Shown: positions 2,668-44,616 of the stretch, one piece after another
Position numbering within the stretch: position 1 is the first letter of the stretch
Layout of the letters: every line of letters starts with the position of its first letter
Virus record (IMG/VR): IMGVR_UViG_2802429245_000013
DNA: 45,041 nt
Reading direction: 5' to 3' (one strand)
Source: a virus
Lineage: Duplodnaviria > Heunggongvirae > Uroviricota > Caudoviricetes
Notes under the pieces: model-generated
What the model was told of the DNA's origin: nothing
Seen by the model: the letters and a program-made list of their open reading frames with translations, nothing else
The model's database searches: none
Program-made: the position numbers and the translations under genes

Positions 2668-2678
2668 ATCTACCCCAT

Positions 2679-2703
2679 AAAAAAACCGCCGAAGCGGTTT
2701 TAA
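2679..2703 (-). terminator. Rho-independent terminator of the moron gene (also usable on + strand)
   Basis: A-run then hairpin AACCGCCGAAGCGGTT then T-rich; on minus strand the hairpin is followed by TTTTTTT, immediately downstream of the 2710..3456 gene. Confidence 0.6.
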
Positions 2704-2709
2704 GTTAAC

Positions 2710-3456
2710 TTATTTTGCCTGTTTCATTTTTTCCACCCTCTCAAGCATTCTTTTTACATTTGATGGAGGATAGTTAAATTCATCGCCGTCTCCAAAAGAA
2801 ATTTTTATAGGCTTCATTTTCATAACCAATTCTTTCAGAACCGCTTTACCAATTTCAGTTTTTGGTACTATAAAACCATTTCCATACAAGCATGATTTAT
2901 AAGTTTTATAATATTCACCATTAATCAAAATTGGTGGATACTCTAATGGTCCATCAATTTGCACTGAATTATCGCAAAATCCATTGCCTTTAGATTTTGA
3001 AGCAATAAAAATAGCTATTGTCCCATCATCGCCATACATCAGGAATCTATTTTTACTAACACCTTCCAGTGGAGGTAATATTATCAGTGCACCATCAATA
3101 TACCATTCAGCGTAATTCTTTGATTCATTGATTATGTTCTCATTAATTTCATTTAAAGATGAATATTCCCTGAATGCATTAGAATACCATTGTCGAACAC
3201 ATGATTCTGTTTTGCACTTCTCTCTTTCATTCCACAAGTCTGAAACAATTTTTCTAAAAGCTTTCTTATCAGCGCTCTCTAACTTTACTTTTTGATATAA
3301 AGAATTTAATTTATCATCAAGTTCAGATAATTCACTGTTGCTGCAAATTAACTTTTCAGAATATGATTTAGCTTTCGAGCAATCAAAAGATACCGCATTC
3401 GCAGTTCCGATTTGTAATAAAAAAGCAAACACTACAAATAATTTAAACTTAATCAT
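2710..3456 (-). CDS. Secreted moron protein: signal peptide plus DUF1311/LprI-like Cys-containing N-terminal domain, unknown C-terminal domain
   Basis: ORF track 248 aa; N-terminal hydrophobic leader MIKFKLFVVFAFLLQIGTANA; motif CSKAKSYSEKLICSNSELSELDDKLNSLYQKV...C...C; strong RBS AAGGAG 7 nt before ATG; visibly AT-rich relative to flanks. Confidence 0.6.
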   Translation of the reverse strand: MIKFKLFVVFAFLLQIGTANAVSFDCSKAKSYSEKLICSNSELSELDDKLNSLYQKVKLESADKKAFRKIVSDLWNEREKCKTESCVRQWYSNAFREYSSLNEINENIINESKNYAEWYIDGALIILPPLEGVSKNRFLMYGDDGTIAIFIASKSKGNGFCDNSVQIDGPLEYPPILINGEYYKTYKSCLYGNGFIVPKTEIGKAVLKELVMKMKPIKISFGDGDEFNYPPSNVKRMLERVEKMKQAK

Positions 3457-3485
3457 CCGTAATCTCCTTAAAAACAGGAGATTAA

Positions 3486-3513
3486 ATTTTACCCATTCTT
3501 AATGTCCGTTCAA
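3486..3513 (-). promoter_or_regulatory. Candidate sigma70 promoter of the moron (TTGAAC-16-TAAAAT on minus strand)
   Basis: Minus-strand hexamers read from sequence: -35 TTGAAC (complement of 3508-3513), 16-nt spacer, -10 TAAAAT (complement of 3486-3491), about 25 nt upstream of the RBS. Confidence 0.4.
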
Positions 3514-3580
3514 GTTCATACTTTACAACCGCGCCCAGTTGAGTATGATTAAGCGCATGAGGCGTCGAAACCTCTTCTCA

Positions 3581-3659
3581 GTGCGGTCACAACCAACCCC
3601 GTTAGTGTTGGATTTTTTATGCCTGCTATTTAGTGATGGCACAATGTGCGGTCACATCC
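3581..3659. repeat. Two copies of a 14-bp direct repeat GTGCGGTCACA(A/T)CC, 65 bp apart, upstream of antA-like gene
   Basis: 3581-3594 gtgcggtcacaacc and 3646-3659 gtgcggtcacatcc; candidate regulator binding sites. Confidence 0.5.
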
Positions 3660-3788
3660 CCGAACAATGTCGGGAGGGCGACGAATACAACACCCGAAAG
3701 GGGAATAAGTCCGCGGCCTCACTGAGCCGTTTCGAACCTCCCGGCTCCACTCCGATAGTGGAAATTCGAAAAAATCAGTGAGGTCGTT

Positions 3789-4358
3789 ATGACAATACAA
3801 TTAATCCCCGTTTTCAACGGAACTATCTCAAACGAAACCGCCCTACTCTGTAATGCTCGTGATCTGCACGCTTTTCTTGGTGTAGGTAAGGTTTTCGCTG
3901 CCTGGATTACATCCCGCATCGCAGAATACGGATTTACAGAAAATCAAGATTACATTTTGCTTTCCAAAACAGGAAAGCAATCGTTAGGAGGCAGAGGAGG
4001 ACATAACCGCAAGGACTACCACCTCACCCTAGACACTGCCAAAGAGCTGGCAATGGTCGAGCGCAACGAAAAAGGACGCCAGATCCGCCGATACTTCATC
4101 GAGTGCGAGAAGAAGCTGCGCGAAGATACCACCAGCACACAATCCCCTCTGAATGTTGACATCATCATGCGCGTCAGAAACGGCTCGGTTACCCACATTG
4201 AGCACCACAAATCAGGCTCAGTTATCACCACAGAATGGGCAATTCACTTACTACGCAAAAGTGGATGGATTGTCATGCCACGCGATGAACTTCTTAACAC
4301 GCCACTGGCCCAACTGATGCCCGAAAATTTGACTCAAACCGGAACCTGCGTCCGGTAA
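3789..4358 (+). CDS. AntA/AntB-type phage antirepressor-like protein, 189 aa
   Basis: ORF track; N-terminal region ...ALLCNARDLHAFLGVGKVFAAWITSRIAEYGFTENQDYILL... resembles AntA antirepressor domain; opposite strand to surrounding tail genes; RBS GAGG 5 nt before ATG. Confidence 0.55.
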   Translation: MTIQLIPVFNGTISNETALLCNARDLHAFLGVGKVFAAWITSRIAEYGFTENQDYILLSKTGKQSLGGRGGHNRKDYHLTLDTAKELAMVERNEKGRQIRRYFIECEKKLREDTTSTQSPLNVDIIMRVRNGSVTHIEHHKSGSVITTEWAIHLLRKSGWIVMPRDELLNTPLAQLMPENLTQTGTCVR

Positions 4359-4685: not shown

Positions 4686-4849
4686 CAACCTTTCAAGTAA
4701 ATTAGGGTACCGGTAACCAGAGCGGTGCAAATGATCCACGCTACTGGAGTCAGAATATGCCGAATCCCCCGACATACTGCGATTATTCTCGCAGCCTTAT
4801 CAGCCCCTTGTGGGGTTGTCTCAGCCTTAAGAATCAGTTCGCTATCCAT
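4686..4849 (-). CDS. Small membrane protein, 54 aa, C-terminal TM segment
   Basis: Hand-found ORF below track cutoff: MDSELILKAETTPQGADKAARIIAVCRGIRHILTPVAWIICTALVTGTLIYLKG; RBS AAAGG 6 nt before ATG; stop 5 nt before next gene start. Confidence 0.35.
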
Positions 4850-5009
4850 TTAGAACCTTTATGATCTCTGCGATTCCCGGAAGCGATTTAGCAACTGCAA
4901 ACCCTCCGATAACTATAAGAACTGCATAAAACATTCTTCTCAGAACCGGACTTCTTTCGAGCAATTTTAGAGCTTCCACAATCCAGTCTCCTCCGCTAAA
5001 ATTAATCAC
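4842..5009 (-). CDS. Small membrane protein, 55 aa, central TM segment, GTG start
   Basis: Hand-found ORF: VINFSGGDWIVEALKLLERSPVLRRMFYAVLIVIGGFAVAKSLPGIAEIIKVLNG; RBS GGAGG 6 nt before GTG; stop overlaps downstream ATG (ATGGATAG). Confidence 0.35.
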   Translation of the reverse strand: MINFSGGDWIVEALKLLERSPVLRRMFYAVLIVIGGFAVAKSLPGIAEIIKVLNG

Positions 5010-5064
5010 GGAAGACCTCCAAACATACGTAATTATCCCTTGCCTTATTCAAGGTCAGAAACAG

Positions 5065-5096
5065 AAAGCCCCGACTGTTTGCCCAGTCGGGGCTTT
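5065..5096 (-). terminator. Terminator-like hairpin just downstream of V-like gene
   Basis: Perfect 13-bp stem AAAGCCCCGACTG / CAGTCGGGGCTTT; on minus strand followed by CTGTTTCT (weak U-tract). Confidence 0.4.
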
Positions 5097-5134
5097 CGCT
5101 TTATGGATAGAATTTAAAGTGAAATGAACCGGTA

Positions 5135-24553: not shown

Positions 24554-24736
24554 TCAGTTCTGCATACACTGCCGGACACCGTCGACAATTTCACAGACCT
24601 GAGAAGCTGTATCGAAAAGCTGGCGCGCCTTATCCAGGCTGACGCATCCCACCAATAAAAAAGGCACCAGTATCGCTACCAGTGCCCATTTCGCTGCCGT
24701 TCGCGGCATTCTGTGTGTCCAGTGTTTTCGACTCAT
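24554..24736 (-). CDS. Lysis-associated lipoprotein (lipobox LLVGC), about 60 aa; o-spanin-like position
   Basis: ORF 24554..24808 trimmed to Met after endolysin stop: MSRKHWTHRMPRTAAKWALVAILVPFLLVGCVSL... Confidence 0.4.
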   Translation of the reverse strand: MSRKHWTHRMPRTAAKWALVAILVPFLLVGCVSLDKARQLFDTASQVCEIVDGVRQCMQN

Positions 24737-24750
24737 AACTCGCCCGGCTA

Positions 24751-25128
24751 TCAGCGTTTCAATTGGAAGTGCGGCCCGTCCTTCAGCGTTTTCCAGTCCC
24801 CGCCCCATTCGATGGCGACTCCCAGCTCTGCGGCAGCCTGCTTAAATGCCTGTGCGATTTTCTCGTACAGAGGCCAGTCCCATGACACCTGGCTGCCAAC
24901 ATAAGCCACAACATCCACAGCATCACCGGTCAGGTGGCGGCTGTTCATGGTCTGGCTTTTCCCTTCCGCGACCAGCTGTTTCTGGCGTTCTTTCGTGCGC
25001 AGCCCTTCCGTAATACCGAAATCAACCTCCGTCAATTCCAGCGCACGGCGAACGACAGCAACCAGCTGTGGTTTGACGCCCTCCAGATTTTTTTCACTGC
25101 GACGACTGAATCTGAATTTACCCGACAT
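24751..25128 (-). CDS. Endolysin, L-alanyl-D-glutamate peptidase (peptidase M15 / VanY-like)
   Basis: Motifs ...SRHLTGDAVDVVAYVG...W...DGPHFQL typical of M15 phage endopeptidases; ATG at 25128 with RBS GGAGG 5 nt upstream (ORF-track first codon is GTG). Confidence 0.75.
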   Translation of the reverse strand: MSGKFRFSRRSEKNLEGVKPQLVAVVRRALELTEVDFGITEGLRTKERQKQLVAEGKSQTMNSRHLTGDAVDVVAYVGSQVSWDWPLYEKIAQAFKQAAAELGVAIEWGGDWKTLKDGPHFQLKR

Positions 25129-25130
25129 GC

Positions 25131-25406
25131 TCACCTCCGGAATGAAAGGATTTTTGAAACGTTCCCGCGTGCACGTATCACCAGCACGCAGAACAGCAGA
25201 TTAAGCCCCACCGCCAGCCAGTTCGCCGCTAACGGGCGACCGCACAGATAGCTGAGGGGTGCAAAGGCATACAGCAGCATCAGCAGCCAGGCCAGCCATG
25301 ACATCAGCGGTTTGTGTCTGGAATCACGGCGACGATAAAAAAAGAGCGTCAGCACGATAACCGTGCATAACGCCACATTCAGCAATCCGGAAAGGTTACT
25401 TAACAT
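25131..25406 (-). CDS. Small membrane protein (holin/antiholin-like), about 91 aa
   Basis: ORF 25131..25460 trimmed to Met with RBS GGAGG; two to three hydrophobic segments; stop overlaps endolysin start. Confidence 0.45.
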   Translation of the reverse strand: MLSNLSGLLNVALCTVIVLTLFFYRRRDSRHKPLMSWLAWLLMLLYAFAPLSYLCGRPLAANWLAVGLNLLFCVLVIRARGNVSKILSFRR

Positions 25407-25788
25407 TGCCGCCTCCTCCGCCCCGCAGGCGGGAGAACAGGCCGGACACCAGCGATGCAATATCCTGCTGGTGGATGAACGAGAGAATCTTCACCGACAC
25501 CACTGACACCAGTACTGCACACAATGCGTCGACAGGCGCGCTGTCAAATCCTGTGTGCTTTACCAGCCAGGCAGCCAGAACCTCTGCGCCCAGCACGCCA
25601 ATAATGAACGACACCAGAAAATGCGCCGCCACACGCCAGGCTGAAAGCGCCTGCGGCATCGTTGCCACAAATAACGCCCCGGCGAACGCACCAAACACAA
25701 TCCCGAAATCCGTTCCGGTAAACAGCCCGTACACCGTCGCCCCACCGAGCGCCGCAGCCGTGCCGGAACCGGATAAGGGTTCAGACAT
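25396..25788 (-). CDS. Holin-like multi-TM protein, about 131 aa
   Basis: ORF 25396..25860 trimmed to Met with RBS AGGAG; Gly/Ala-rich transmembrane segments; first gene of lysis cassette. Confidence 0.5.
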   Translation of the reverse strand: MSEPLSGSGTAAALGGATVYGLFTGTDFGIVFGAFAGALFVATMPQALSAWRVAAHFLVSFIIGVLGAEVLAAWLVKHTGFDSAPVDALCAVLVSVVSVKILSFIHQQDIASLVSGLFSRLRGGGGGNVK

Positions 25789-25802
25789 ACTTTTTTCTCC
25801 TG

Positions 25803-25829
25803 TAAATAAAAAAGGGCCACCAGCGGCCC
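25803..25829 (-). terminator. Hairpin plus U-tract immediately upstream of holin RBS (minus strand)
   Basis: Stem GGGCC/GGCCC with 6-nt loop; on minus strand followed by TTTTTTATTT. Confidence 0.45.
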
Positions 25830-26107
25830 GTAAAAAACACCCCGTCAAAAGCACCGGCATCCGCAGATGCCCTTTGCGTGGCGTTATTTGATGCGCGCCA
25901 GATGTGGCGCAAAGAAATGAAATAAGACTTATCGGAAATTAAGGTTAATTTGAGGATTTAAACCACTTCTGAAGCTTAGTAGTATGAACATGTCCCCGGA
26001 AGGGGGCCAATACTTATTATTCTTCATGGACTTTGTCCCGCGGTCTTAATCCGACGACCGCGCTACTTTTCACCCTCTCGCAAATTGCTATCCAAAGGAC
26101 GTTGTCC

Positions 26108-26154: not shown

Positions 26155-26180
26155 ATAAAAAAAACCGCCAGATATGGCGG
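26155..26180 (-). terminator. Rho-independent terminator downstream of the tRNA pair (minus strand)
   Basis: Hairpin CCGCCAGATATGGCGG; on minus strand followed by TTTTTTTT. Confidence 0.55.
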
Positions 26181-26546
26181 TTGGTCAATGCAAGGGATGA
26201 ATTTTTTTAATTGTTATTAAACCGAGGCGTCGGGTGCCTCCCGAAGTATTCCGTGCTGTATGGATACTGTGGTTTCCCGCTAAACCGACTCTTTAAACCA
26301 CCCTCGCACTGAGGTGCGCCTCTTTGGTGCGATTTACAACACCAGAATGATGCATCACCGACCCTGCCAGGAAATACAAAATCTCCACCGATAATGCACC
26401 ATTCTGCTGTCGTAAAAAAATCAGCACTGAGGCTACACCTGGCCTCAAATCATAGCCAGAGAACAGAATGCTTTTTCAAAACAACCTGCTCCCACGTAAT
26501 AAAAAATACGCCAGTGCCGCAATACAATAAGGCTTGTTTCAAATGC

Positions 26547-26621
<75 letters not shown>

Positions 26622-26624
26622 ATA

Positions 26625-26700
<76 letters not shown>

Positions 26701-27066: not shown

Positions 27067-27522
27067 TTATTGGCTTTCTCCGCATAACGCCAATTTCATT
27101 GGTATATACAGAATGTGTTCAGCAACACCCAACCATGCATCAATGCGATTTCTGCAAGTTTTCAAGCTCCAGCCAGGGCGATACTTATTTAACTGTTGTG
27201 CCATTTTCAGCTTACTCATCCCCCGCCCTTCATATCTTTGTCGGAGGATAAAAATCAATCCAGGATGCTCTGCCATCACTTCACTAATTACCCGGTCAAT
27301 ACATAACGCCTCGGCATCAGTGCAATGGGACAGCCAGCTTTTTTGCTTACTGTCGATCATCTCACGCAAAAATGCTTCCAGCTCTGGCTTCTCTATTCCC
27401 GCTTTTTTCATTCTGCGCAGAGCTTCATTGATGGCTGTTTTCGTCAATTTTTTGGATGCCAGCAACTGGTTGAACATATTCCCCGTCTTACCGCCACCAA
27501 TATACGACCAGCGCCCCCACAT
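27067..27522 (-). CDS. Late-gene antiterminator Q-like protein, about 151 aa
   Basis: Position (last early gene before late terminator and lysis genes); ORF 27067..27729 trimmed because its 5-prime part overlaps the upstream gene; assignment is positional plus weak sequence impression. Confidence 0.45.
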   Translation of the reverse strand: MWGRWSYIGGGKTGNMFNQLLASKKLTKTAINEALRRMKKAGIEKPELEAFLREMIDSKQKSWLSHCTDAEALCIDRVISEVMAEHPGLIFILRQRYEGRGMSKLKMAQQLNKYRPGWSLKTCRNRIDAWLGVAEHILYIPMKLALCGESQ

Positions 27523-27605
27523 ACGCAGTTTTCCCTGAATCCAGACACTTTCCAGCGTGGTGAGACGAAGGTGTTCTCCGCTTTTTCCTGTATTCGTTGG
27601 GTAAA

Positions 27606-27896
27606 TCACAAATATCCCTCCTTTCTCCAGATTTCTTGTGTGCGAAAAACACCTTCTGCATGCATCAGGCGTAATTCTTCTTTGGTGTAATCGCTGGTTT
27701 TTACCCGCCCGTCGATTAAATCGTGGCACGAGCTACAGGCAATCGCGGCCTGCATATCGTGTGGCTTTATCGCTGTTCCGCACGTTCCCGCCAGTCGGTA
27801 ATGCGCCAGCACAGACGTTTCGGGATTGTGATTGCAGTAGCCAGGAATTCTGACCTGGCACATCTGGCCCCGCGCCGCTTTACGTAAATCCACCAT
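27606..27896 (-). CDS. YbcO-like Cys-rich nin-region protein, 96 aa
   Basis: ORF track; Cys pattern C..C....C...CSSCH; nin-region position upstream of Q. Confidence 0.5.
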   Translation of the reverse strand: MVDLRKAARGQMCQVRIPGYCNHNPETSVLAHYRLAGTCGTAIKPHDMQAAIACSSCHDLIDGRVKTSDYTKEELRLMHAEGVFRTQEIWRKEGYL

Positions 27897-29008: not shown

Positions 29009-29164
29009 TTACTCCTCAGGTTCGTAAGCTGTGAAGACAGCGACCTCCGTCTGGCCGGTTCGGATTCGTACCTCGCAGAGGTCTTTCCTCGTTACCAGTG
29101 CCGTCACTATGACGGTTAAACAGATGACGATCAAGGCGATTAACATCGCCTTTTGCTGCTTCAT
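29009..29164 (-). CDS. hok: Hok/Gef family type I toxin (HokD/RelF-like), 51 aa
   Basis: Translation MKQQKAMLIALIVICLTVIVTALVTRKDLCEVRIRTGQTEVAVFTAYEPEE is a canonical Hok-family sequence (single TM, conserved C-terminal periplasmic part). Confidence 0.85.
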   Translation of the reverse strand: MKQQKAMLIALIVICLTVIVTALVTRKDLCEVRIRTGQTEVAVFTAYEPEE

Positions 29165-29222
29165 AGCCTGCTTCTCCTTGCCTTTCGGCACGCAAGAGGC
29201 TAATCTTCAGTTGTCGAGACAT
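29016..29222 (-). CDS. mok: Mok-like overlapping reading frame (translation coupled to hok)
   Basis: ORF 29016..29312 in a different frame overlapping hok almost completely and ending 7 nt from hok stop, as in hok/mok/sok loci; start uncertain. Confidence 0.4.
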   Translation of the reverse strand: MSRQLKISLLRAERQGEAGYEAAKGDVNRLDRHLFNRHSDGTGNEERPLRGTNPNRPDGGRCLHSLRT

Positions 29223-29435
29223 AAGACTGGCCTCACTTCGATTTATAGTCGGGTGGGGCTTTTCTCTATCTGCCTTTTGGTGTTCATGCCCGAGGCAGAT
29301 AGCCTCAAGCACCCGCAGTAATTCTACTTAACTCTCCTTTTCCCGCAAACCGTTTTTATCCCCATCGGCAAATCGAATACACAACCAGCGCCACCGCCAG
29401 TGCAATTCCTACCGTTGTGAATGCTTCAGGCCAGG

Positions 29436-42501: not shown

Positions 42502-42696
42502 ATGCGGTATGAAAAAGTCAAACCATGTCCGTTTTGTGGTTGTCCATCAGTAACGGTGAAAGCCATTTCAGGATATTACCGCGCAAAGTGTAACGGATGC
42601 GAATCCCGAACCGGTTATGGTGGAAGTGAAAAAGAAGCACTCGAAAGATGGAATAAACGAACCACTGGAAATAATAATGGAGGTGTTCATGTATAA
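42502..42696 (+). CDS. ralR: RalR (Lar) restriction-alleviation protein / type I toxin, 64 aa
   Basis: Translation MRYEKVKPCPFCGCPSVTVKAISGYYRAKCNGCESRTGYGGSEKEALERWNKRTTGNNNGGVHV recognised as RalR. Confidence 0.8.
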   Translation: MRYEKVKPCPFCGCPSVTVKAISGYYRAKCNGCESRTGYGGSEKEALERWNKRTTGNNNGGVHV

Positions 42697-42877
42697 AATT
42701 ACCGCCACTATTGAAAAGGAAGGTGGCACTCCTACTAACTGGACAAGATATTCAAAATCTAAACTAACGAAATCAGAATGCGAAAAAATGCTCTCAGGGA
42801 AAAAAGAAGCAGGCGTTTCCAGAGAGCAGAAAGCAAAACTGATAAATTTTAATTGCGAGAAACTTCTGTCATCGTGA
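42689..42877 (+). CDS. ydaC: YdaC-like protein, 62 aa
   Basis: ORF 42617..42877 trimmed to MYKITATIEKEGGTPTNWTRYSK... with RBS GGAGG 5 nt upstream; overlaps ralR end. Confidence 0.55.
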   Translation: MYKITATIEKEGGTPTNWTRYSKSKLTKSECEKMLSGKKEAGVSREQKAKLINFNCEKLLSS

Positions 42878-44354: not shown

Positions 44355-44472
44355 AAAAAAGACCGGAATACAGAAATTCGAGTAAATTTCGGGGGATTTC
44401 GGGGAGATGCTTGCAACTAATTGATTTTAAATACAATTAAAAAGAGACCGAATACGATTCCTGTATTCGGTC
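44355..44472. repeat. att-region repeats: three copies of GACCGAATAC(A/G) (one inverted, forming a 10-bp-stem palindrome) plus tandem TTTCGGGG(G/A)
   Basis: 44361-44373 gaccggaatacag; 44446-44472 gaccgaatacgattcctgtattcggtc; 44386-44406 atttcgggggatttcggggag. Confidence 0.4.
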
Positions 44473-44616
44473 CAGGGAAATGGCTCTTGGGAGAGAGCCG
44501 TGCGCTAAAAGTTGGCATTAATGCAGGCTTAGTTGCCTTGCCTTTTAAGAATAGATGACGACGCCAGGTTTTCCAGTCCGCGCGTAAAGTGGTCAGAAAA
44601 AAAGCGCGTTTATCAT

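Follow-up and report, generated by a model that had tools for sequence, protein, structure and literature searches.

Two small membrane-protein genes behind a terminator-like hairpin in a variable slot between baseplate genes of an Escherichia coli prophage

The 45,041-nucleotide (nt) stretch of viral DNA analysed here (IMG/VR record IMGVR_UViG_2802429245_000013; hereafter the window) is an Escherichia coli prophage, in which a short slot in the late genes, between the gene for the central baseplate spike and the gene for a 115-amino-acid (aa) baseplate protein, is occupied by a hairpin and two small open reading frames (ORFs), termed ORF55 and ORF54 (Table 1). A reading of the sequence alone had placed a perfect 13-bp-stem hairpin right after the V-like spike gene and two back-to-back ORFs of 55 and 54 aa behind it, as an insert between spike and wedge genes. 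The hairpin and the coordinates of the ORFs are borne out here, and the word insert is literally correct, the spike and 115-aa genes abutting or overlapping in relatives that lack it. Comparison with these relatives indicates that both ORFs are genes, and the genetic anatomy of the locus is very probably that of a horizontally mobile cassette, without a promoter of its own, within a phage late operon.

The stem of the hairpin, AAAGCCCCGACTG/CAGTCGGGGCTTT around the loop GGCAAA, lies 37 nt past the stop codon of the spike gene (TAA at 5137-5135, minus strand) and is followed by TGTTTCTGA, the sequence directly after it reading UGUUUCUGA. A terminator scan finds 14 pairs, nine of them G-C, with the tail UGUUUCUG; the folding energy is -30.7 kcal/mol on the sense strand and -28.9 kcal/mol on the antisense strand, and the surrounding 140-nt region folds at z = -3.7 relative to shuffles. 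Across 21 distinct variants taken from relatives the stem is maintained by compensatory changes, with 91.6% of alignment cells paired. Five pairs have changed on both sides, one of them occurring as AU in 10 variants, GC in 10 and CG in one, and the stems include GCCCC/GGGGC, ACCCC/GGGGU and CCCCC/GGGGG, with exchanges of G-C for A-U deeper in the stem as well. The observed covariation score was reached by none of 500 shuffles, and in the alignment control pairing collapses when the 3' partner is slid by one to three columns. With a G+C-rich stem, compensatory changes and a U-tract, which is stronger in relatives (for example UUUUUGUUUCUG), the hairpin is a predicted intrinsic terminator. Because the A-tract upstream (5098-5104) and the U-rich tail downstream (5054-5063) are both conserved in relatives, it plausibly terminates in either direction. 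A search for further copies showed this type of hairpin to be single-copy within the window. Together with the leader behind it, it forms the best-conserved part of the slot, in which Rfam gave nothing above threshold. The loop (5078-5083) is found in reverse-complementary versions across phages, of the types GGCAAA/TTTGCC and TTGGCC/GGCCAA, as if the palindrome had been inverted or either strand had served as a recombination template.

ORF55 begins with GTG, and this start codon differs among copies, being GTG, ATG or TTG; ORF54 begins with ATG. The sequence-only reading had credited each ORF with a good ribosome-binding site, which holds for ORF55 (GGAGG, six nt upstream) and fails for ORF54, where a weak AAGG Shine-Dalgarno sequence is all that precedes the start. 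It had also described overlapping stop and start codons: ORF55 and ORF54 do overlap, by 8 nt (ATGGATAG), whereas the stop codon of ORF54 lies 3 nt before the next ATG (TGAcgcATG). Initiation of ORF54 is, on this arrangement, more likely to depend on coupling through the 8-nt overlap than on its own Shine-Dalgarno sequence. The N-terminus of ORF54 is remodelled at the junction with ORF55, and its free-standing relatives are 65 aa long. No ORF was annotated at either position by the NCBI Prokaryotic Genome Annotation Pipeline (PGAP) in any genome inspected.

ORF55 also contains a candidate internal start (Table 1). In a Salmonella copy CTG replaces the first start codon and the gene is called from the GTG at codon 11, the same codon from which five database members of the family begin. 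A stretch of about 30 nt at 4974-5003 (ORF55 codons 3-12; codons 4-13 are almost invariant) is nearly nucleotide-invariant although the flanking leader and coding sequence are saturated, and it overlaps both the internal GGAGGAG-N8-GTG and an antisense promoter-like site.

Each protein contains one hydrophobic span on the Kyte-Doolittle scale, as had been noted, with a mean of about 1.9 over residues 29-47 of ORF55 and 2.0 over residues 32-50 of ORF54. AlphaFold2 models built from family alignments are all-helical, each with a short helix at the N-terminus before a long one: residues 8-19 and 21-54 in ORF55 (mean predicted local distance difference test score, pLDDT, 84), and 2-10 and 13-53 in ORF54 (mean pLDDT 75). 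An N-in topology with nearly no periplasmic tail is predicted for both, because lysine and arginine residues are concentrated N-terminal of the span (4-9, against 0-2 on the other side). It is the soluble N-terminal parts that are best conserved, FSGGDWIVEALK...LRRM in ORF55 and KAETTPQGADKAA-IIA-CRGIRH-LTP in ORF54, and the core KAETTPQGADKAAxIIAxCRGIRHxLTP of ORF54 is invariant among homologues; the membrane span varies. Conservation distributed in this way suggests that the proteins bind something specifically instead of damaging membranes generically.

The case that these are genes rests on substitution patterns. Between ORF54 and the copy of the STEC383 type there are 28 synonymous and four non-synonymous changes, a ratio of non-synonymous to synonymous rates (dN/dS) of 0.02, and the ratio is 0.10 against a Salmonella copy; for ORF55 it is 0.14-0.15 against two copies from lambdoid prophages, within an overall range of 0.10-0.15. 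The other five frames of the same alignments give 0.16-12.6, and the only other values that low belong to one reverse-strand frame, which mirrors the coding frame in codon phase. Because low dN/dS is limited to the proposed frames, ORF55 and ORF54 are judged to be real genes under purifying selection, drawn from two orphan families. Had homologous regions lost the reading frames, this would have spoken against the ORFs; both frames are instead conserved and selected there. In two contigs a shortened remnant of ORF54 carries three amino-acid changes within its 23 retained codons. Two plus-strand ORFs, 4725-4853 and 4757-4864, were considered and rejected on the same values (0.16-12.6 against 0.02-0.15 in the called frame, the one low frame being the codon-phase mirror).

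The occupancy of the slot varies widely among relatives. The 115-aa protein was used to fetch 80 IMG/VR loci, and the distance from spike stop to 115-aa start was measured in the 79 that have both genes. The slot is empty in 26 of the 79, all more distant relatives, where the two genes overlap or lie no more than 17 nt apart, and it is empty too in genomes of Erwinia, Pantoea, Pseudescherichia, Serratia, Caballeronia and alphaproteobacteria. The other 53 loci, of E. coli type, and Yersinia similis have a filled slot of 242-1528 bp, and in all 53 the hairpin comes first, followed by at least one small membrane ORF and in total by one to four interchangeable genes. At least eight gene combinations occur among them: type C alone in about 21 loci, a variant of type A alone in about 15, B alone in four, A alone in two, A with B in five besides the window, and also B+C'+C, A+B+C'+C, and D with others (types in Table 1). 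Four larger slots carry a Rha/Ant-like gene as well. Strains 401651 and ETEC1734 of E. coli have the A+B cassette, and E. coli W has B+C. Phages with backbones 89-100% identical can differ in the cassette types they carry. A distant relationship between types A and C is probable, given an hhalign probability of 63% and the existence of chimeric members. The base composition of the ORFs also departs from that of the genes beside them, G+C at third codon positions being 0.34 in ORF55 and 0.44 in ORF54 against 0.58 in the spike gene and 0.64 in the 115-aa gene. Two other views of the pair were rejected: a structural role in the baseplate, since many relatives that share these baseplate genes lack the ORFs and since the ORFs are freely swapped, and an obligate pairing of ORF55 with ORF54, since each is found alone in other phages.

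Many of the cassette proteins end in ...IRWW (Table 1), and at this position the codons CGC TGG TGG make up an exact Chi site in part of the copies; most of the remainder have GATGGTGG or GTTGGTGG. The G-rich stretch of this end sits 1-8 nt ahead of the downstream start and could serve as its Shine-Dalgarno sequence, so that the motif may be under three overlapping constraints.

The same elements occur outside the baseplate module. The hairpin and the next 30 nt or so match lambdoid phages and prophages, where they occupy the endolysin|Rz junction, once more ahead of small membrane ORFs. The exact 24-mer of the leader, TTTCTGACCTTGAATAAGGCAAGG, is present in 38 IMG/VR contigs, at 23 spike|115-aa junctions and 15 endolysin|Rz junctions, and a small membrane ORF follows it in every contig except one that is truncated; it is found too in the phages SPN3UB, GER2 and PhiR12_1. 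Homologues of ORF55 occupy the endolysin|Rz junction behind the same hairpin in lambdoid prophages of E. coli and Salmonella, sometimes with a further overlapping small ORF, and relatives of ORF54 occur in Salmonella prophages after a tail-fibre gene and before a DUF1353 gene, behind hairpins and with stop and start overlapping. Diverged homologues thus keep their reading frames in three genomic contexts, and ORF55-family proteins that are 65-91% identical accompany both lysis settings, the lambdoid one and an unrelated lysis system. A search of the E. coli K-12 Qin lysis region for named homologues found that rrrQ and rzpQ overlap, with no slot. Hairpin and ORFs are judged to travel together, a point that the sequence-only reading had missed along with the lack of an accompanying promoter, and the moving unit is therefore read as extending from the hairpin through the stop codon of the last small ORF.

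Both families are narrow. Scans of ORF55, ORF54 and sister cassette proteins against Pfam, PHROG, NCBIfam and PADLOC matched no model, and no PADLOC family reached E <= 1 for either or for three sister cassette proteins. In particular, neither ORF belongs to the YebO/gp15 family (no Pfam match at E <= 0.1, no PHROG match), neither matches a known holin family in Pfam, PHROG or NCBIfam, and Pfam assigns neither to a known type I toxin family (Hok, Ldr, Ibs, TisB, ShoB and others), in a window whose own Hok is detected at 2e-23. By these searches the cassette is in no known holin, toxin, exclusion or defence family. The sequence-only reading had suggested toxins, exclusion factors or holin-like modulators, all three of which stay candidate roles here. 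A tblastn search with both proteins found nothing in 50,697 sequenced phage genomes; to date all members of the two families come from prophages and IMG/VR contigs. Among 5.8 billion proteins there are 20-40 homologue clusters for ORF55 and 28 for ORF54, all those named being from Escherichia, Salmonella or Yersinia, with identities down to 63-65%. A profile of ORF54 run against 1.84 billion cluster representatives returned 11 matches, every one a close relative or a frameshifted fragment.

Table 1. Features of the cassette and its surroundings, with positions in the window unless another sequence is named.
Feature	Position	Strand	Remarks
Baseplate J	2667-1441	-	
Second variable region	2668-4333		between 115-aa gene and baseplate J
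115-aa baseplate gene	4681-4334	-	phrog_7986; position of P2 gpW; downstream flank of slot
Slot	5134-4682	-	between spike and 115-aa genes
ORF54 ('type B')	4849-4685	-	predicted tail-anchored membrane protein, 54 aa; ATG start
ORF55 ('type A')	5009-4842	-	predicted single-pass membrane protein, 55 aa; GTG start
Candidate internal start in ORF55	4977-4994	-	GGAGGAG 4994-4988, 8 nt, GTG codon 11 at 4979-4977; would give a 45-aa form
Candidate antisense promoter-like site	4975-5002	+	TCCACA-16-TAAAAT; ORF55 codons 3-12; 9/12, 4 found vs 3.8 expected in shuffles
Ribosome-binding site of ORF55, GGAGG	5020-5016	-	in the leader segment specific to type A cassettes (about 25 nt)
Leader	5010-5063	-	conserved 24-mer TTTCTGACCTTGAATAAGGCAAGG at 5061-5038, then type-A-specific segment (about 25 nt) with ribosome-binding site
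Small leader hairpin, CCTTG...CAAGG	5054-5038	-	
Hairpin, intrinsic-terminator-like	5064-5097	-	13-bp stem 5096-5065, 14 with closing G-C at 5097/5064; 6-nt loop
Central spike gene	5848-5135	-	gpV / phi92 gp138 type, 237 aa; upstream flank of slot
Baseplate hub	6855-5848	-	phrog_196
Tape measure	9907-7790	-	
Lysis genes	24554-25860		Phage_holin_8, Phage_holin_3_7, M15 peptidase; about 20 kb from cassette
Q-type antiterminator	27067-27729		DUF1133 + Phage_antitermQ
Chi sites	258, 452, 4129, 14967, 15630, 18723, 20503, 21382, 25817	-	
Chi site	25467	+	
IRWW/Chi-like ends	L014 5230-5245; L110 3228-3243		in these relatives, in L099 and in IMG/VR slots; absent from the window's own cassette
Cassette type A			ORF55-like, with sub-variants
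Cassette type B			ORF54-like, usually 65 aa
Cassette type C			...KFLLIWLVFLILASGYFVGQIRWW; rac58 of phage Rac-SA53
Cassette type C'			paralogue of C
Cassette type D			MEIVNVTPKDICRILWHVVASICVIMLAWKLISLI
Cassette types at endolysin|Rz			C in SPN3UB; E in GER2; E' and F in PhiR12_1

In every case the cassette is co-oriented with the late genes, and its final stop codon abuts or overlaps the downstream start. A consensus scan, which an atypical promoter could escape, found no sigma-70-like sense site of at least 9/12 between 5063 and 5010, and the best looser sense candidate, TTCTGA-17-GATAAT (8/12), is not conserved in other cassettes. The window encodes a Q-type antiterminator, and further sense-strand terminators lie within the late region, for example at 14691-14673 after the capsid gene. 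It is rather likely from this layout that ORF55 and ORF54 are expressed by late read-through. The cassette itself is read as a fixed 5' end, the plausibly bidirectional terminator hairpin and a leader of about 30 nt, and a variable body of one to four genes for single-pass inner-membrane proteins of 35-65 aa. Lacking a promoter, it would be transcribed when Q-antiterminated RNA polymerase passes the hairpin late in infection; in the lysogen the hairpin would shield the genes from unmodified polymerase arriving from upstream. ORF54 would be translated through coupling to ORF55, and the last small ORF would restore the coupling to the 115-aa gene that spike and 115-aa genes have in insert-free relatives. 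The proteins would insert N-in, leaving a conserved cytoplasmic helix of 25-40 residues anchored to the membrane.

Taken as a whole, the locus is best explained as a mobile, late, accessory inner-membrane cassette of exclusion type, a reading to which we give a probability of about 0.4. The functional part of it, that the proteins block genome entry of other phages as HK97 gp15 does rather than take part in baseplate assembly, is an analogy and is held more tentatively still, as possible and somewhat doubtful; it is ranked before lysis modulation, which in turn is ranked before a type I-like system. It draws on the fast turnover of cassettes among near-identical backbones, the Rha/Ant-like genes in some slots, and the cargo of the next junction, which is Ant, an LprI-like gene or, in a single relative, a gene whose annotation reads type I restriction endonuclease. 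Several observations weigh against exclusion. Exclusion by a prophage would require expression in the lysogen, yet a terminator precedes the cassette and no promoter is recognisable in it; that sister cassettes recur between endolysin and spanin fits lysis equally well; ORF55 and ORF54 also occur separately, so that joint action is not required; and no similarity to gp15/YebO, Imm or Sie proteins or to PADLOC defence models was found.

The exclusion protein gp15 of HK97, small and located in the inner membrane, is the product of an insert (a moron) in a tail operon (Cumby et al. 2012; PMC3594210). The present cassette shares with it presence or absence among close relatives, a place between essential tail genes of a lambdoid late operon, and deviant composition. 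The two differ in that gp15, which derives from host YebO, is expressed from the prophage and comes with a promoter and terminator of its own, whereas the cassette has an upstream terminator, no promoter that we could see, no similarity to YebO, interchangeable gene arrays and a second home in lysis cassettes. A likeness to the classical lambdoid morons of Juhala and Hendrix, such as lambda bor and lom, lies in the extra DNA at a junction, the horizontal exchange and the atypical GC content. As expected of a moron, the junction is empty in relatives and the composition is unlike that of the neighbouring genes; neither an own promoter upstream nor an own terminator downstream was found, the terminator identified (5097-5064) being upstream. 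The moron order of promoter, gene and terminator is thus set against an order here of terminator, leader, one or more genes and coupling to the next essential gene. The structural modules of temperate phages such as P2 and P4 have hot spots for accessory and defence genes, at which a fixed junction holds cargo that varies between near-identical phages. The slot has the same fixed junction with variable cargo, the cargo here being tiny membrane proteins without a PADLOC match.

A role in the timing of lysis is the next reading to be considered. The proteins would bind holins, spanins or membrane-tethered endolysins, like antiholins or releasin-type factors, and the location in the baseplate module would be a by-product of mobility. 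Known proteins of this kind include lambda S107/S105 and the Mu releasin gp25 (PMC9239132), and the products of the cassette resemble them in being small, apparently late membrane proteins and in having sister cassettes that lie between endolysin and spanin genes. Those that have hairpin and leader in common with the present one indeed sit exactly at endolysin|Rz in 15 of the 38 IMG/VR leader matches and in SPN3UB, GER2 and PhiR12_1, homologues of ORF55 reside in lambdoid lysis cassettes, late expression would suit such a role, and the possible second start of ORF55 (GGAGGAG, 8 nt, GTG codon 11), seemingly the one start used by the Salmonella copy, recalls the dual starts of holin/antiholin genes. 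Against this, the cassette of the window is about 20 kb from the lysis genes rather than next to an endolysin, and those lysis genes have no relationship to the class II holin and lysozyme that accompany the lambdoid copies; the same protein family nevertheless serves both. Free exchange of cassette types among near-identical phages is unexpected for a partner-specific timing device, and neither Pfam nor PHROGs gave a match to a holin or other lysis family. On balance we regard lysis timing as unlikely. A type I toxin-antitoxin arrangement is less probable again. ORF55 would be a membrane toxin silenced in lysogens by an antisense RNA of about 85-95 nt, which would begin in its first codons, cross its ribosome-binding site and stop at the bidirectional hairpin. 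The layout recalls hok/sok and symE/symR in combining a hydrophobic peptide of fewer than 60 aa with a possible cis-antisense RNA that covers the ribosome-binding site and ends at a strong hairpin. A transcript from the plus-strand promoter-like site (9/12) would take this course, comparable -10-like hexamers lie antisense within the opening codons of types A, B-long, C, E and E', termination in both directions is expected from the conserved A-tract ahead of the stem, codons 4-13 of ORF55 are almost nucleotide-invariant between saturated flanks, and there are weak plus-strand Rfam matches to the antisense RNAs sar and ohsC. Yet the antisense promoter is matched no more often than in shuffled sequence, with the sense strand scoring alike, and the sar and ohsC matches, which probably owe their scores to the hairpin, lie far below threshold (24 against 43 bits, 22.8 against 50). 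The internal ribosome-binding site and start, or recombination, would account for the invariant island just as well. No toxin promoter and no Rfam or Pfam match were found, although the genuine type I systems of the window, hok/sok and RalR/RalA, are cleanly detected by Rfam or Pfam. Finally, the genes share the direction of the operon that contains them and are coupled to an essential gene, and what is conserved in the proteins is their soluble N-terminal helices and not the membrane span, which is atypical of pore-forming toxins.

At the other extreme, the hairpin alone might matter, as a terminator, mRNA stabiliser or recombination joint, with the ORFs as unselected filler. The strong conservation of hairpin and leader and the silence of PGAP on the ORFs would fit such an account, which is nevertheless largely refuted and carries very little weight: purifying selection on both ORFs is strong and frame-specific, diverged homologues keep the frames in three contexts and every filled slot has at least one intact small membrane ORF, and it is the shortened remnant of ORF54 that has accumulated amino-acid changes (three in 23 codons). 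More speculative than the exclusion-type reading, and in our view improbable as a complete account, is the proposal of an undescribed class of 'terminator-first' cassettes in Q-antiterminated late operons. A bidirectional hairpin and leader would here carry interchangeable tail-anchored micro-proteins, and recombination, both at the hairpin and at the Chi-like ...RWW-stop 3' end, would move the cassettes between endolysin|Rz and spike|wedge junctions; in the lysogen they would be kept silent by the hairpin and by a cis-antisense RNA terminating there, and upon induction a late burst of the membrane proteins would exclude competitors or set the timing of lysis.

Small accessory genes in late operons are a familiar general phenomenon. 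A promoter-less, multi-gene cassette of orphan micro-proteins that begins with a terminator and is common to two late-operon junctions has not previously been described in the literature searched, and no description of the ORF55 or ORF54 genes was found in publications on Rac-SA53, on small membrane proteins connected with morons or exclusion, or on inserts in lysis cassettes. Membrane proteins of fewer than 60 aa are routinely missed by annotation, and proteins of this kind, HK97 gp15 among them, can determine the set of phages able to infect a cell. With at least seven interchangeable types of micro-protein, one shared boundary element and two unrelated late-operon junctions, the locus amounts to a natural experiment in modular exchange. 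An exclusion or lysis-timing function, if true, would explain differences among otherwise identical prophages of E. coli, including enterotoxigenic (ETEC) and Shiga toxin-producing (STEC) strains, and would define new accessory gene families; should the function be neither, two verified genes and a conserved terminator are still there for annotation to carry.

The late genes surrounding the cassette run, on the minus strand, from the tape measure gene through two small conserved genes, the baseplate hub and the spike to the slot, and from there through the 115-aa gene and a second variable region to baseplate J. The spike protein matches Protein Data Bank entry 3pqi (phi92 gp138; E 3.4e-5) and gives weak matches to TIGR01644 phage_P2_V and to the GpV Apex motif; its gene is named bppV in the annotation of Escherichia phage Rac-SA53, the closest sequenced phage. 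With the 1.6-kb segment 4300-5900 as query, related sequence was found in 93 of 5,426 complete E. coli genomes, and a chromosome stretch of strain 401651 is 99.6% identical. One genome with the prophage, NZ_CP026085.1 (4.83 Mb), is labelled E. coli DH5alpha and has the same coverage, identity and score as E. coli W; since the prophage is not expected in a K-12 derivative, the label may be wrong.

The cargo of the second variable junction, 2668-4333, is in the window an AntA/AntB antirepressor gene (3789-4358, plus strand) and a gene of 31% GC for an LprI-like secreted protein (2710-3456, minus strand); in Rac-SA53 this place is taken by two plus-strand hypothetical genes, and strain GmM062 has there a gene that carries the annotation type I restriction endonuclease. 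Directly upstream of the antirepressor gene, at 3669-3753 (plus strand), there is an above-threshold Rfam match to sRNA-Xcc1 (72 bits, gathering score 53). Two tRNA genes lie at 26550-26700 (minus strand) between the Q antiterminator and the holin genes, and after them comes a strong terminator-like hairpin that has eight consecutive T (26163-26182, minus strand), possibly a terminator that Q overrides. The complete hok/sok locus spans 29009-29314 on the minus strand, with a Hok/Gef ORF at 29009-29191 (Pfam 2e-23) and the sok RNA at 29159-29314 (120 bits), and the RalA antitoxin RNA of a Rac-type RalR/RalA system is found at 42695-42873 on the same strand (218 bits). The chromosomal small RNA pair SraC/RyeA and SdsR/RyeB at 44435-44579 suggests that the prophage ends, and host flank begins, near 44 kb. 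Over the whole window there are 10 Chi sites (GCTGGTGG) where 1.2 are expected, nine of them on the sense strand of the late genes, an abundance that resembles that of the Chi-rich lambdoid phages described in PMC12315714.

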